A DNA stretch of 21,426 bases from Escherichia coli (GTDB lineage Bacteria; Pseudomonadota; Gammaproteobacteria; Enterobacterales; Enterobacteriaceae). Within the stretch, counting starts at the first letter, position 1, and each line of letters begins with the position of its first letter. The translations under genes were made by a program, and so were the position numbers. The stretch lies in the NCBI RefSeq assembly GCF_003334765.1, contig NZ_QOWT01000047.1. The stretch is one strand, 5' to 3'. Positions 9,297 to 21,349 of the stretch are shown piece by piece. The notes under the pieces were generated by a model. The model saw only the letters and a list, made by a program, of their open reading frames with translations, made no database searches and had not been told where the DNA came from.

Positions 9297-9707
9297 TTAC
9301 CAGGAGCCGCGGCTCCTTTGCGTATCCTTTTATGTCTCCTCACCGTCTGGTCGGTGTTTTGCTGAGACTTCTAACTTCCTGTTTTTGTTGGTGTTGTCCT
9401 TACACCGTCCAATCATGATTGGTGGGCTGGCGTCCCTGTAAATAACTATTCATGACATTGATTTTTAGGTTTATTTTAAATTTATATGTGGTCCTAAAAA
9501 GGAACCATAAATCTTAACGGTATGAGTTCTCACGAATAGCCGATTTGCAAATTGTATCAAAAGACAACAAATTTCTCAGTTCAACTCCCTATTGGTAACT
9601 GAACTCATAGATAAGGTCCGTTATGCTTTTCATAGGTAGACGAATACGGTAACTTTTCTCAATAGCACGATTCTATCCGCAGTACCAGCATAGGTGGAGA
9701 ATGGATT

Positions 9708-10553
9708 TTGAACAATTGGTCACCAGAGCATACAAAAGTCATCAAGAGCTGGTTTAAGATTGATACATATCGCAAATTTGAAGACCTCTCATTGATTCAG
9801 TTCTACCATGAGATATGGGCCCGTAAATTGTTCTTTAAGGAGTATCGGGAAGAGTTTGAGAGCAGAGCACTTGCGGGTTACTTCTCAAAAATTTTTAGTG
9901 GCAATCCTTTTTTAATTGAAGAAGGACAACTGGGATACATGACTCCTGCCAACAAACTTTTTCAACCTCCCCATTTCTTTCTCACAACTCTTGATCGCCT
10001 TGCTGAAACGAGCATTATTGCAATGCAACGTGGAGGTTTTCTTTGGCATGAAGGTGATAATTATTCTATAAACGCAGAGCTTCGAGAAGAATCACTTTCA
10101 GACATTATGCCAGATCAGTTTACACGAACGATCATGTTCGAGATTGATCTGGCAAGTGGCACAGACGAAGAGATTGCAGAGTCGCTTAAAGCTGCATTAC
10201 CGCAGTGGCGTAAAGTTAAGGGTATTGATGAAAACCCATTGGAATCTGTTCGTTTTGGATACGGAACTATCAAGAAACTCATCAGTTATCGTGTAATACC
10301 TATGCTTGATATCCTGGTGTGGGCAGCCGTTAAAAAAATCCGTGTCTCTGACGACAGGTTATCCAGACTACTATATACAGACGATGACGAAGAAAGCGAA
10401 ATGAGACAGTCCAGCCAAATCAAAGATACCGACAGGCCTTTGGCTCTTAAATCCTGCACAACTGACTTTATCCGACAATTCCATTACTTCATGAACAAAA
10501 ACAGCCATTTAAAGCAAATGAAAGTCTCTGATGTAATGAAACTATCGGATTAA
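9708..10553 (+). CDS. hypothetical protein, 281 aa, no recognisable motif
   Basis: The ORF is 846 nt and has no competing frame. It has a TTG start with GGAGA at 9696-9700, 7 nt upstream. A terminator follows it and an AlpA-family gene comes next. I cannot assign a function from the sequence. Confidence 0.6.
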   Translation: MNNWSPEHTKVIKSWFKIDTYRKFEDLSLIQFYHEIWARKLFFKEYREEFESRALAGYFSKIFSGNPFLIEEGQLGYMTPANKLFQPPHFFLTTLDRLAETSIIAMQRGGFLWHEGDNYSINAELREESLSDIMPDQFTRTIMFEIDLASGTDEEIAESLKAALPQWRKVKGIDENPLESVRFGYGTIKKLISYRVIPMLDILVWAAVKKIRVSDDRLSRLLYTDDDEESEMRQSSQIKDTDRPLALKSCTTDFIRQFHYFMNKNSHLKQMKVSDVMKLSD

Positions 10554-10597
10554 GAGTTAATTAATAACTGTCTGTTTTTTTATTATAAAAATAAACT

Positions 10598-10628
10598 AAA
10601 AGCACTACTGTAAATGGTGCTTTTTTTT
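10598..10628 (+). terminator. Rho-independent terminator after the 281-aa ORF
   Basis: The stem is AAAAGCAC (10598-10605) paired with GTGCTTTT (10617-10624), with an 11-nt loop and a T-run extending to 10628. Confidence 0.65.
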
Positions 10629-10835
10629 GCGATTTTTACTTTAAACCGGCCATTTTTACACTTGCTATAAAACAGGGGAATTTCAGCTACTCTCAAGTTC
10701 CCTTGTTCTGTACTGCACCAACTTCGAGAAAACCATCCTGCACAGCAGCGAAGAACCTCCGCTTCAGGAGCTTCGCTCCTTTCTTTTCCCAACTGCTCGT
10801 ATAGTGACTTCACCGCAACGACAAGGGATAACGAA

Positions 10836-11042
10836 ATGAAAAATCAAGCAACCCGCCTCATACGCTTACCAGAAGTTCTCGAACGAACTGGCTACGGAAA
10901 AGCCTGGATCTATCGTCTGATCAACGATGGCAAGTTTCCTGCTCCTGTCAAAATTGGAAGTCGTGCAATAGCTTTCGTTGAAAGTGAGATTGATAGCTGG
11001 ATTCAGTCTGTTATCGAAACAAGTCGAAATAATGTTGCTTAA
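10836..11042 (+). CDS. AlpA-family (MerR-like HTH) phage/island regulatory protein or excisionase-like protein, 68 aa
   Basis: ..RLIRLPEVLERTGYGKAWIYRLINDGKFPAPVKIGSRAIAFVESEIDSWI.. is the typical AlpA/Phage_AlpA signature: R-L-x-E-V-x-x-x-T-G-x-S-x-x-x-I-Y-x-x-x-x-x-G-x-F-P-x-P-x-K-x-G, then W-x-x-x-E-I-x-x-W. Confidence 0.85.
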   Translation: MKNQATRLIRLPEVLERTGYGKAWIYRLINDGKFPAPVKIGSRAIAFVESEIDSWIQSVIETSRNNVA

Positions 11043-11062
11043 TTGAATTTAGGAGAGATTTT

Positions 11063-11362
11063 ATGACTATCGAAGAATTTGTGAATGAAGAAAACCATAT
11101 GTGTAATCTGGGCCAGGAACTATTCTTTAAAATTTTCGAGCCTGAATCGATTTATAATTTACCCAATAACGAGTTTAATAAAGAAATAATATATTGGCTC
11201 AGTCAGTATCTTGTCGGAAATTTGATACAACCTTTAGACGCGATCTCAGAGCTTAATGCTTCCAAACAAATATATGTTTACGAGACTTGGTTTTCGCTAA
11301 TTAAATGCCCTGATGAAATGAAACTCTTGGCGAAGCGGATAATTGAATATTTATTGGATTAA
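11063..11362 (+). CDS. hypothetical protein, 99 aa
   Basis: An ATG is preceded by AGGAGA 6-7 nt upstream, and the ORF begins 20 nt after the AlpA-family gene stop. No motif is recognisable. Confidence 0.6.
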   Translation: MTIEEFVNEENHMCNLGQELFFKIFEPESIYNLPNNEFNKEIIYWLSQYLVGNLIQPLDAISELNASKQIYVYETWFSLIKCPDEMKLLAKRIIEYLLD

Positions 11363-11610
11363 GAAATTCATATGGCAATGCAAAGTTTTGCTGCATATTT
11401 TAGATTAAAACGTTAAAGAATAACTTGCATTATTTTTATGACCGTTCTTTTGCAAGGCAGTGAGATGGTTTTAGGTGGGTTGGGTGTGCATAATATTAAT
11501 AGTGTTAGGACGGTTTTTAGTATTAAGAAGTAATAATAATAGCCATTGGTGAAAATTATGACGGGATTTTTACCATGACATTTCATATTAATAAGTATAG
11601 GAAAGTTAAA

Positions 11611-19450: not shown

Positions 19451-19489
19451 AACGAATCATTCACTTTAAACCTTTACTGACATATTGGT

Positions 19490-19517
19490 TATATATTCTG
19501 AGAAATTTATAGTGCAA
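19490..19517 (-). promoter_or_regulatory. candidate sigma70 promoter firing leftwards across the nick region into the ankyrin/mob gene string
   Basis: On the minus strand the sequence is TTGCAC (19517-19512), a 16-nt spacer, then TATATA (19495-19490). Confidence 0.35.
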
Positions 19518-19672
19518 AAGGCTCGGTGTGCAGACTTACGCCAGCCCAATCAAGCCGTAGTGCTTTAGTTTTGGGGCTTAGGTATGGTGGAAAAAAGCGA
19601 CTCGTTAAGCTTACTGAGCTCTATGTATTTCAGGAGTCGGTCAGTAAGTTAACGATCCAAGAGGCTCATCAA

Positions 19673-20189
19673 TCATAAGAGATGTATCAATCTTGCGAGA
19701 CTCTCACGGATTTTATCGCCGTCATAAATAGCAATCTCTTCAATATTGTTACCAATGAAAGTTTCAGCTGCCTGGATGGCTATCAGTTCAGACATACCAA
19801 CGTTATCAGCCAGCTGGCGTGCTGCAATGACCTTGCTTTCAAGAGTTAGGATGACCGGCCTGTAGCCTGCGCGTTTGATTTTGATACAGTGTGAAATCAA
19901 TTTCTCCATAGGTGCGGTGGTCACTTGGAATGCAGTCGTACCCACCTGAAAGGCCCCTTCACGGTCAATGTGTGGATCATTAGCATTGGCCCTGCGACTA
20001 CTGATTTTAACATCTAGGGAAACGTAGCTGATGTTTGGCTTCGATAAGATTCTGTAGCACCGCCTCAGTGGGGTTGTCAGAACATTCCGCTGCCGCCTTA
20101 AGAATATCGCTTACTAGAGATGAAACTGGTTGATTGTAATCCCGGTCGACCGTTACTCTATGTTTATCCGGATAATTTTGGCGTACACA
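19673..20189 (-). pseudogene. frameshifted gene remnant with a Toprim-like C-terminus
   Basis: Two overlapping minus-strand frames carry the remnant. Bases 20189-20010 read CVRQNYPDKHRVTVDRDYNQPVSSLVSDILKAAAECSDNPTEAVLQNLIEAKHQ... The frame of ORF 19673..19945 is open back to about 20097 and reads ..SYVSLDVKISSRRANANDPHIDREGAFQVGTTAFQ... The C-terminus ..YRPVILTLESKVIAARQL..(45 aa)..IAIYDGDKIRESLARL resembles the DnaG Toprim motifs (vvvEG..D..al; icCYDGDrAG..Aa.Ral). Further upstream there are only short broken frames. Confidence 0.35.
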
Positions 20190-20668
20190 TTAAGTGAAGA
20201 AAACTTCAAAGTGATTTGAAACAGATGTTGTATTCACTGGCTCATTTACATTAACTTGAGTGTTGTTCAGCACATGTTGAAACGCAGCTGTAAGGAAGAT
20301 GATACAGCCAAGATGTATCCTTCATTATGGGGATTGGCGCGATGACCACCACGGCTTAGCCCGATTGATTATTTGGAAATTGATTAGAATGCATAATCTG
20401 GGCTGAGCTCACTTAAAGTCTCTAATGTTTGACTTGGAGATTTGGGGGGCAGTGGCTTTCAGTTTTGTTAACTCTAACATCTGGTTTACGTTCCTTTTGG
20501 AACAAGAAGCAGAGGTCTGCTAAGTAATGGTTGTACTGCTTGTGATAGGTATGACTGCATGTTCAGCGAGCAAGAATGGCTTAAAAGTTCTGTTACTGAG
20601 CACCCCATGAAGTTAGAACGATGTCATAACGTGCACGTAACCGTTGAACTGTTCTCTTACAGATAATC

Positions 20669-20716
20669 TCTACATAGCTATTATTGCTTAGGCGGTAGCT
20701 ATGTAGATGGTTTTTG
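20669..20716 (+). terminator. strong hairpin with U-tract (plus-strand terminator or regulatory hairpin) just upstream of the NTPase gene
   Basis: TCTACATAGCTA (20669-20680) pairs with TAGCTATGTAGA (20696-20707) as a perfect 12-bp stem with a 15-nt loop, followed by TGGTTTTTG. Confidence 0.55.
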
Positions 20717-20784
20717 TAATATTATATTAAAAGTTCATACAGCGACTATAGCATCATTGCGAAAAATATCAGGAGGTGAGTTTA

Positions 20785-21349
20785 ATGTTACGAAAAAGCA
20801 AACTTACAGAGATATATAAAAGGTTTGGTTTTACTGAAGAAAATACAGGTAACGAAAGTATTGCTGTATATTCTATTAAAACAGGGCACTACCATAACGC
20901 GGACATACTTCCACTAAATAATGAGGTTAATGTAAATCAAACCTTTGAAGAATATAGGCAGTTAGGTTATGCATGTCAAATTAAAAAATATCAGTCTTAT
21001 GAAGAAGCACATAAGGAATTATTTAATGGCTTCTTTAGCGTCGATTCAACTAAAGAAAGGTTGATTAAAGATTATAATACTTTCACAGATTCAATTGTAA
21101 AAATTCACTCACCTACTGCAACTTATTCCTACATAAATTCAAAATATTACTTAAATGGTGTTATTGGCGAAGCTAATGTTGTTACGGAAATATTAGAGAG
21201 AATACAACATAGGCGTCCAATTCTGTTTTTGATTGAGGCTGCAGCCGGTTTTGGAAAGACTTGCACGGCGTATGAATTATTGAGGGAGATTATAGTTAAC
21301 AATATAGGGAAAATACCATTATTTTCAGAACTATCAAGGAATAGGCAAG
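20785..21349 (+). pseudogene. P-loop NTPase (STAND/NACHT-like Walker A) with a possible Mrr-like PD-(D/E)xK N-terminal domain, truncated by IS5 insertion
   Basis: ATG 20785 has AGGAGG (20771-20776) 8 nt upstream. The Walker A motif ..RPILFLIEAAAGFGKTCTAYEL.. lies about 160 aa into the protein. The N-terminal part has ..HNADILP..(25 aa)..GYACQIKKY, resembling the D...QxK signature of Mrr-type nucleases (weak). The reading frame runs straight into the IS5 IRL at 21350, so only about 188 native codons remain. Confidence 0.7.

Follow-up and report, generated by a model that had tools for sequence, protein, structure and literature searches.

The stretch of Escherichia coli DNA analysed here (21,426 nt, contig NZ_QOWT01000047.1 of assembly GCF_003334765.1; hereafter the window) carries at positions 9433–21349 what is probably part of an integrative mobilisable element (IME) that is inserted at ssrA, the gene for transfer-messenger RNA (tmRNA), and that combines a replication module with variable cargo. 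This reading is supported by an exact insertion at ssrA (a site that is found empty in natural strains), by synteny with related loci, and by plasmid homologues of the element's replication-like (Rep-like) protein, MobC-like protein and relaxase. An earlier note, made from the letters alone, had proposed for this region either an integrative mobilisable element able to replicate after excision or a small mobilisable plasmid captured in the chromosome; the first of these proposals is supported by the same lines of evidence.

Insertion at ssrA

The limits of the island became apparent from empty sites. Searching window positions 9150–9750 against all E. coli genomes revealed many island-free strains, in which ypjA is followed by ~160 bp and then by ssrA, and in which the match to the window ends exactly at 9432. 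The junction between island and chromosome lies exactly there, at the start coordinate given in the earlier note, and the island begins at 9433. Immediately before it, positions 9418–9432 hold the distal attachment repeat (attR), ATTGGTGG-GCTGGCG, a 15/16 copy of the ssrA 3′ end that corresponds to the pseudo-ssrA ‘psaA’ of K-12. This repeat aligns with ATTGGTGGAGCTGGCG at the 3′ end of ssrA in the closed genome of strain MRE162 (L001 39436–39451), 20.4 kb away. The psaA sequence at the right end of prophage CP4-57 in K-12 has the identical 14 nt and the same one-base deletion, and the insertion point of the island, 14 nt into the 3′ end of ssrA, is the site used by CP4-57. Early searches with the last 28 nt of ssrA (≤3 mismatches) and then by comparing the 3′ end of ssrA with the island in short-word BLAST gave nothing convincing, because the repeat is only 15–16 nt long with one deletion; it was the empty-site comparison that revealed it. 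The attP junction of an excised circle is predicted to read ...CAATATATCAAAA-ATTGGTGG(A)GCTGGCG-TCCCTGTAAATAAC...

Among open reading frames (ORFs) of at least 60 aa in 9432–21349, none matched families of integrases, type IV coupling proteins (T4CP) or type IV secretion systems (T4SS), in agreement with the earlier note, which had seen none of the three. Its suggestion to look for an integrase beyond the IS5 in a closed genome proved fruitful: a P4-like tyrosine integrase of 409 aa, 49% identical to IntA of K-12, lies ~9 kb past the right edge of the window in closed genomes, beside ssrA. In MRE162, the order past the IS5 site is the rest of a NACHT gene, a RelA/SpoT-domain gene, an IS3 fragment, two ParB-like genes, a 518-aa serine recombinase and then the 409-aa integrase, which abuts ssrA; no T4SS or T4CP is annotated in this rest of the island. 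Site-specific integration, as expected of the IME class, is thus reflected in the 15/16 repeat, the natural empty site and the integrase beside ssrA, outside the window. The whole island measures roughly 20 kb (in MRE162, NZ_CP119404 positions 1,110,074–1,130,509), of which window 9433–21349 is the tmRNA-distal 12 kb, and the integrase-proximal 9 kb could be a separate accretion. We considered a model in which inversion or circular permutation accounts for an integrase far from the AlpA gene described below, and dropped it: the layout of islands of the EARL family is equal, and the gene orientations misfit a simple permutation.

Positions 21350–21426, which we take to be an IS5 terminus, represent an insertion and the contig end and lie outside the island. 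Window 1–77 is a near-perfect inverted complement of them, and closed genomes align only to 78–21349. IS5 ends occur on both sides because the window is a draft contig bounded by repeats. The left one (1–77) breaks an amylase-like pseudogene, and the right one sits within the NACHT cargo gene, where the window reads ...GGCAAG followed by GGAAGGTGCG and MRE162 keeps the NACHT reading frame. Of the earlier note's claim that IS5 truncates or rearranges the element at its right edge, the IS5 terminus itself stands, whereas a truncation of the element is not demonstrable. For the window's own strain, the draft contig ends at this IS5, short of where the integrase half of the island would follow.

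At the distal end, two inward-facing genes follow the attachment repeat. The first encodes a 281-aa DUF6387 protein (9708–10553, plus strand; Pfam DUF6387 E = 1.2e-80) in an ORF of 843 nt plus stop, and lies directly before the gene of a 68-aa AlpA-family helix-turn-helix protein (10836–11042, plus strand). The latter matches Pfam Phage_AlpA (E = 1.4e-19), in line with the AlpA-type regulator called in the earlier note, as well as the PHROG family ‘excisionase and transcriptional regulator’ (E = 7.6e-11), and is 36% identical to AlpA of K-12. These similarities make it a candidate excision regulator or recombination directionality factor (RDF). In every relative possessing DUF6387, the gene adjoins AlpA and/or a P4-like integrase. 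In E. coli O157:H7, a diverged DUF6387 gene (~64% nucleotide identity) lies less than ~1 kb from a match to the ypjA 3′ end; the placement of DUF6387 at this end of the ssrA region may thus be a recurrent design.

The attachment site brings CP4-57 itself into consideration. This prophage, whose excision is induced by AlpA, shares with the island the exact insertion point and the 14-nt pseudo-ssrA repeat, and it likewise encodes an AlpA and an integrase of the P4-like type. A phage satellite (P4-like, or a phage-inducible chromosomal island, PICI) or a cryptic prophage like CP4-57, moved by phage packaging, would account for these features, and a survey of E. coli defence islands found satellites, as well as IMEs, among the occupants of the tmRNA hotspot (PMC10121019). 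However, the integrase and AlpA, at the modest identities given above, are the only genes that match CP4-57, which has no relaxase, MobC or Rep-like gene, and whose AlpA adjoins int instead of lying at the opposite end. No capsid, packaging or primase-helicase match was obtained for the island; its PHROG matches comprise the excisionase and one family of unknown function for DUF6387. A search of 50,697 phage records gave no match for the Rep-like protein, and a relaxase/MobC operon is present. We therefore regard a satellite or prophage origin as extremely improbable.

Mobilisation module and probable replication module

The transfer genes of the element form an overlapping pair on the minus strand. 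The relaxase (15842–17077, 411 aa) is of the MobA/VirD2 type (Pfam PF03432, E = 1.6e-22), and its motif H106-D-D108-P-D110-G-Q-H113-I-H115 is an exact HxDxDxxHxH. Aligning it with the relaxases of island relatives and of two plasmids showed Y19 and the histidine motif to be invariant. Its N-terminal 250 aa are 43–50% identical to relaxases of 7.6–12 kb plasmids, and it is 43% identical to the relaxase of the IncQ2 plasmid pBRST7.6, which MOB-suite types as MOBP. The match to NCBIfam TraI/MobA(P) (4.8e-14) falls under the curated cut-off, and placement in a sub-family is approximate. With the tyrosine, the three-histidine motif and the IncQ2 kinship all in place, the sequence points to a MOBP-like relaxase in this approximate sense. 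A PDB sequence search with the relaxase gave no match. Towards the C-terminus, codons ~297–313 (window ~16150–16200) form a (Pro-Val)n tract encoded by a TGGCAC/GTGCCA hexamer repeat, which is found in some relatives (e.g. L041) and not in others, and is probably a slippage-prone linker.

The second gene of the pair encodes a MobC-like relaxosome accessory protein of 135 aa (17074–17481, minus strand), and its end overlaps the start of the relaxase by 4 nt. The annotated MobC of pBRST7.6, to which it is 42% identical (pairwise E = 9e-22), has the equal position and likewise an overlapping stop/start. There was no match to Pfam MobC at E ≤ 0.1, and a weak NikA-like match (0.042) was the only one. 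The earlier note's calls of a relaxase with the HxDxDxxHxH motif and of MobC thus hold, the former through a profile search and the latter through its plasmid counterpart. Some 100–125 bp upstream of mobC, an inverted repeat with 13-nt arms, GGTATACCATTTG/CAAATAGTATACC (17581–17607), is a candidate for the origin of transfer (oriT) and/or the MobC operator. Several diverged relatives have an inverted repeat with other arm sequences ~120–165 bp upstream of the mobC start; 5 of the 15 loci examined yielded no such repeat.

The candidate replication initiator is a winged-helix protein of 187 aa (12428–12991, minus strand), remotely RepL-like. Its plasmid relatives are the most informative. Using tblastn against 72,556 plasmid records, we found full-length homologues of 45–47% identity on circular 2.7–2.8 kb plasmids of Klebsiella, E. 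coli, Enterobacter, Citrobacter and Serratia. In the three such plasmids that were inspected, the homologue is the sole annotated gene, or the sole one besides a Pre/Mob ‘plasmid recombination protein’, and must therefore provide replication there. A further homologue (P0132, 43% identical) resides on a 2.5 kb contig, presumably a small plasmid, and bears the NCBI name ‘replication/maintenance protein RepL’. The resemblance of the island to these small cryptic plasmids of 2.5–2.8 kb extends to direct repeats upstream of the gene: the plasmids have four repeats of 21–22 bp ~130–215 bp upstream of the rep homologue, with 22-bp spacing and a palindromic core, whereas the island has a 49-bp spacing and a non-palindromic core. 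Three of the 2.7–2.8 kb plasmids (L004, L005 and L006, from Klebsiella, Enterobacter and E. coli) encode the RepL-like winged helix-turn-helix (wHTH) protein with or without a MOBV-type Pre/Mob; their four palindromic 21–22-bp iterons read ATTATGAAAATCATAAT, and PLSDB assigns them no replicon type.

Pfam RepL (PF05732) is not matched by the Rep-like protein of the window even at E ≤ 1, but it is matched by 6 of the 18 aligned relatives (best E = 2.1e-5). Of the RepL-like initiator proposed in the earlier note, the remote family resemblance therefore survives and the direct profile match does not.

The region upstream of the Rep-like gene has the anatomy of an iteron replicon, in that a candidate initiator gene, repeats and an AT-rich region are present and conserved, with the repeats as putative Rep binding sites. 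An AT-rich tract (12992–13330; 71% A+T vs 62% for the whole region) directly adjoins the gene, includes the rep promoter region and is alignable across relatives. Beyond it, three direct repeats (13433–13566) consist of 36-nt units at 49-bp spacing, whose 16-mer core AAATACGCTTCGYGCA occurs at 13453, 13502 and 13551, where 0.01 occurrences would be expected by chance. The three repeats that the earlier note called iterons, and its AT-rich tract, are thereby upheld. In an alignment of the ~1 kb upstream of Rep from nine relatives, the TGCGCGAAGCGTATTT unit occurs in two or three copies, and the differences are clean indels of 49-bp units. No DnaA box was found in 12900–14100.

Between rep and the gene of a 141-aa protein, the same alignment contains a GC-richer non-coding block (13621–13810; 51% A+T) that is nearly invariant across genera and more conserved than adjacent coding DNA. 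It holds short hairpins, e.g. GAGTGC..GCACTC. A scan of 13600–13830 found no Rfam family (at gathering thresholds and at E ≤ 1), and DNA folding of this block gave a z-score of –0.5, a stability no greater than that of shuffled sequence. The block may belong to the origin or serve as a site of single-strand initiation. In a leuX element of strain STEC17-183, the slot between AlpA and the relaxase is filled by a Pfam Replicase (PF03090, 3.9e-30) in place of the RepL-like protein, which is good indirect evidence for a replication module at the rep position.

Relatives, cargo and chromosomal flank

We collected relatives by looking up the context of Rep homologues, by scanning a single genome of each species and by running tblastn with every island protein against 28 loci. 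They share a syntenic core that runs from a 146-aa protein and an ankyrin protein through MobC, the relaxase, a membrane protein and two lipoproteins to the divergent 141-aa gene, the long intergenic region and Rep. This core is found in Citrobacter, Enterobacter, Leclercia, Lelliottia, Phytobacter, Pseudocitrobacter, Superficieibacter, Kluyvera, Salmonella, Yersinia and others. In all, the backbone is present in more than 20 enterobacterial species, with gene order kept in 22 species loci and synteny in more than 25 related loci. Nucleotide identity to window ~9.7–19.27 kb amounts to 82–88% in several genera, e.g. Pseudocitrobacter, Citrobacter, Superficieibacter and Lelliottia, which indicates recent horizontal spread.

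Past Rep, the relatives follow two arrangements. In the first, Rep is followed by small ORFs, AlpA and DUF6387, and some of these loci have a P4-like integrase beside tRNA-Leu(CAA) (L007, L023, L029, L032). In the second, a different tyrosine recombinase is present and the element is inserted between mutS and ygbA (L016, L018, L020, L022 and others). The Rep-Mob core is thus coupled to at least three integration modules: ssrA, leuX and mutS-ygbA. Compact relatives delimit it as a discrete unit, namely mutS-ygbA elements of 10.5–13.7 kb (~10.5 kb in E. coli D8, 13.7 kb in JCKP02) and the leuX element of STEC17-183, which measures 11.3 kb and is flanked by 18-bp tRNA-Leu repeats. For four leuX relatives, far-end tRNA-Leu repeats were not found in 10-kb flanks. 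More distant relatives without the Rep-like gene occupy other sites, one of them beside lysS.

A further group of loci (L041, which is E. coli isolate 58 at mutS-ygbA, together with L043–L046 and L049) has relaxase, lipoprotein or DUF6387-AlpA modules in common with the island. In these, Rep is replaced by a pair or trio of tyrosine recombinases (GInt-like), and the cargo includes Gabija-like, TIR, GAPS4 or other defence genes. The replacement of Rep and the mixture of modules in this group suggest extensive module shuffling.

On this basis we put forward, as a tentative proposal that we rate somewhat below an even chance, that the island represents an undescribed, widespread enterobacterial IME family. 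Its portable ‘replicate-and-hitch’ core would comprise a RepL-like replicon, an IncQ2-type MobC/relaxase pair, the 141-aa protein, two lipoproteins and a membrane protein, and would be carried on several unrelated integration modules with differing cargo, a large share of which seems to serve defence.

The distribution of the core also bears on the second proposal of the earlier note. Since the Rep and Mob homologues are otherwise plasmid-borne, the region might reflect a one-off chromosomal capture in which a small mobilisable plasmid co-integrated into an ssrA island that was already in place. However, the search for a free-plasmid relative that the note had recommended came back empty: none of the 72,556 plasmid records carries island DNA. 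The only apparent ‘plasmid’ matches, OX345049 and OX345050, proved to be draft contigs of Salmonella, linear, 3.6 kb long and with island gene order, and were discarded. In addition, the Rep-type and Mob-type relatives are on different plasmid families, and the island is, unlike them, chromosomal with integration functions. The core, finally, recurs in more than 20 species on at least two integration modules other than that at ssrA, which is difficult to reconcile with a single capture. We consider this origin very unlikely.

The remaining backbone genes are less readily interpreted. Three small conserved ORFs between AlpA and Rep (11063–11362 and 11575–11886 on the plus strand, 12058–12363 on the minus strand) have no family matches, and tblastn detects each in some relatives. 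The conserved 141-aa protein (14031–14456, plus strand, divergent from rep; RefSeq annotation) also lacks a family match; among loci covering the region, tblastn finds its gene in every variant retaining the Rep-like gene, minimal ones included. Between it and the relaxase, the minus-strand genes of 14598–15656 encode two lipoproteins (106 aa, and a 132-aa ORF annotated as 128 aa) and a 91-aa zinc-ribbon membrane protein. Their family matches, to BamE and DZR, are weak, the BamE-like one belonging to the larger lipoprotein (132-aa ORF), and in some genomes PGAP names one of the three ‘SEN1984 family lipoprotein’. Most relatives have these genes, but L007, L036–L038 and D8 lack either one lipoprotein gene or both. 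Upstream of mobC, 17683–19266 (minus strand) encodes the ankyrin-repeat protein (317 aa; Pfam Ank_2/Ank_4) and the 146-aa protein.

According to homology break-points, the backbone common to other species ends at ~19266, where the cargo begins. Gene fragments at 19673–20130 (minus strand) derive from a decayed DUF4928/type II restriction endonuclease gene (Pfam DUF4928, positions 202–288 of 306; PADLOC REase_II, E = 7.5e-42), which RefSeq annotates as pseudogene pieces. They are followed by the 5′ part of a NACHT NTPase gene (20785–21349, plus strand; Pfam NA-iREase2, E = 1.8e-34), cut by IS5. In closed genomes this gene is intact, encodes 701 aa and precedes the RelA/SpoT-domain gene (MRE162; L001 30361–33371). 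PADLOC gave no match for the NACHT protein and only a weak one for the RelA/SpoT protein (PDC-S33, 8.4e-05). The pair, with NA-iREase2 at the N-terminus of the NACHT protein, looks like an uncatalogued NLR-type (nucleotide-binding leucine-rich repeat) defence candidate, and the variable cargo, comprising the restriction and NACHT genes, is probably related to anti-phage defence.

The flank of the island is chromosomal. By megablast against 5,426 complete E. coli genomes, window 78–21349 is collinear with 56–57 closed chromosomes at 99.8–100% identity and never with a plasmid; carriers of the full region make up ~1% of closed E. coli genomes and stem from human, poultry, pig and plant sources. 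From left to right, ORF listing and family scans place the pseudogenised amylase-like gene first, in the ygaQ region, followed by a tRNA annotated as tRNA-Ile (ileY, 1569–1641) and a ypjC-type gene (2395–3767) split into two ORFs with DUF5507 (2395–2877) and DUF5508 (3078–3767), which in some strains is a pseudogene according to RefSeq. A fragment of a pinH-type recombinase at ~4100–4280 and ypjA, an autotransporter of the 1,500-aa class whose gene ends at 9259, precede the island. In E. coli RM10410 (NZ_CP042350.1), the ypjA/DUF6387 junction (3,100,136) and the lipoprotein genes (3,024,229) are both 100% identical to the window, but ~76 kb apart instead of 5 kb, so that a large insertion or rearrangement inside the RM10410 island is likely.

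Known elements, alternative readings and a possible life cycle

The overall architecture of the island is reminiscent of two described groups of elements. EARL islands such as ROD21 of Salmonella Enteritidis and ICEKp258.2 of Klebsiella ST258 have a P4-like integrase at the tRNA end (PMC6035254, PMC10763509) and, opposite it, an inward-facing DUF6387 gene of ~843 bp with an AlpA-family RDF (PMC6035254; PMC10763509 Table 1), a layout also seen here. ROD21 further shares a relaxase followed by a membrane protein and lipoproteins, one gene of the present island being named after SEN1984 of ROD21, as well as a wHTH gene annotated as RepL, which has a divergent neighbour and a long intergenic region upstream (PMC10655114). 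Like the present island, ROD21 is without a T4SS; both its excision and its transfer by means of a helper plasmid are documented (PMC6035254, PMC10763509, PMC10655114, PMC8844411). However, EARL islands are inserted at an Asn-tRNA gene instead of ssrA, and they encode a MobA/MobL (MOBQ) relaxase and TraD, whereas the relaxase here is PF03432/MOBP-like and accompanied by MobC. Of other features of those islands, no TraD match, no type IV pilin family match in any window ORF and no H-NS homologue was found here. Look-ups aimed at a true EARL island yielded further IME variants.

Pseudomonadota integrative mobilizable elements (PIMEs) likewise combine an integrase, AlpA, a replicase, mobilisation genes of the P type and large cargo; they excise, replicate, are mobilised by IncP plasmids and carry immune systems (10.64898/2026.01.12.698999). 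Their core consists of trbJ/trbL, RepA/RepC-type replicases and traJ/traI/traK (10.64898/2026.01.12.698999), whereas a small RepL-like wHTH protein is found here. None of these core genes, traJ/traI/traK included, was detected: window ORFs gave no match to the TrbJ/TrbL or RepA/RepC families, nor does the annotation of MRE162 show any in the remainder of the island. As the defining features of both groups are lacking, the island falls outside either family though it resembles both. We found no paper on this particular Rep-Mob core and no fully described family to which the island belongs. Membership in such a family, or a lack of profile support for the relaxase and RepL calls, would according to the earlier note have told against its proposal; neither applies, and the relaxase call is solid.

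Several observations weigh against the reading of the island as a replicating IME. On the side of transfer, the RP4-type nick consensus YATCCTGY occurs at 6 sites (2.3 expected, no convincing enrichment), none of them upstream of mobC, and was not adopted. No nick site could be assigned; the earlier note had listed a candidate. On the side of excision, two scans of metagenome contigs did not find the predicted attP junction, an outcome that is uninformative in itself. The AlpA/DUF6387 pair is 91–93% identical to a pair beside a leuX-type integrase which is only 33% identical to the ssrA integrase. RDF and integrase may therefore be mismatched here, and the excision partners, to judge from these identities, may be a recent, possibly imperfect combination. 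The cargo contains pseudogenes and IS remnants. On the side of replication, the Rep-like protein falls below every curated replication-family threshold, with sub-threshold matches to HTH_36 (0.001), Phage_rep_O (0.01), Rep3_N (0.028) and the phage O N-terminus. Its AlphaFold model (mean predicted local distance difference test, pLDDT, 54.5) is confident in the winged-helix core only, a Foldseek search of the PDB with this model gave generic MarR-like folds and nothing at E ≤ 0.001, and a PDB sequence search with the Rep profile gave only weak MarR/Cro wHTH matches. Predicted structure and fold search cannot separate an initiator from a regulator. The 49-bp spacing of the repeats is unusual for iterons. 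In ROD21, deletion of the RepL-annotated wHTH gene SEN1990 (protein WP_001095779.1) left island copy number and the amount of the excised form unchanged (PMC10655114), which would be a real counter-indication if SEN1990 is homologous to the Rep-like protein.

These last points lend themselves to another explanation, namely an IME without autonomous replication, whose Rep-like protein would be a transcription factor with the repeats for operators; the same conclusion was reached for SEN1990 of ROD21, where the intergenic region and divergent neighbour are similar (PMC10655114). The generic wHTH/MarR-like similarity by profile and fold would fit this, as would repeats that lie 440–570 bp from the gene. 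Nevertheless, the homologues of 45–47% identity are the sole non-Mob gene on the inspected circular plasmids and have classic 22-bp iterons upstream, a sister IME holds a Pfam Replicase in the same slot, and homology between the Rep-like protein and SEN1990 is not established. We judge a purely regulatory role unlikely, while giving it real weight.

The points on excision and cargo, in turn, fit an immobile remnant: a decayed mosaic passed on by vertical inheritance or by homologous recombination of its flanks, with Rep, Mob and AlpA as relics and with the copy of the window's strain further broken or rearranged by IS5. The imperfect att repeat, an AlpA/DUF6387 pair closest to one with a different integrase type, DUF4928 pseudogenes and a piece of IS3 in the cargo, a contig that ends in IS5 at either side and the rarity of the full region among closed E. 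coli genomes would all be expected of such a relic. On the other hand, all backbone ORFs are intact, and near-identity is maintained across 57 genomes of varied sources. The 82–88% identical backbone in many genera implies recent horizontal spread, and conservation extends to the non-coding regions of the origin and the inverted repeat. Since psaA of K-12 has the one-base deletion of the distal repeat as well, this deletion does not represent decay of this island. Taken together, a remnant is in our view an unlikely account, if one that deserves consideration.

If the island is an IME with its own replication module, its life cycle can be pictured by analogy with described elements. AlpA would promote recombination of the two 15–16 nt repeats by the integrase, so that a circle is released and the ypjA-ssrA arrangement restored. 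The Rep-like protein would then bind the repeats upstream of its gene, and the circle would be kept or amplified, while MobC and the relaxase would nick oriT near the inverted repeat. A co-resident conjugative plasmid would supply the coupling protein and T4SS; an IncP-like helper appears most plausible, as the Mob genes are of the IncQ2 type. In the recipient, the integrase would re-insert the element at ssrA. By analogy with trbJ/K/L in PIMEs or traN/G/H in SGI1, exclusion or the mating apparatus of the helper might be the target of the lipoprotein and membrane genes beside the relaxase.

The element is an uncharacterised form of a known kind of hitch-hiking mobile element, and no new principle is involved. 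Recognition is growing that IMEs, though under-described, are major carriers of genes for defence, virulence and resistance. In this context, the island offers a tractable model for how such hitchers are assembled, whether they replicate after excision and which plasmids they exploit, and it provides a route to the function of DUF6387 and of the RepL-like wHTH proteins that are also found in ROD21-type islands.

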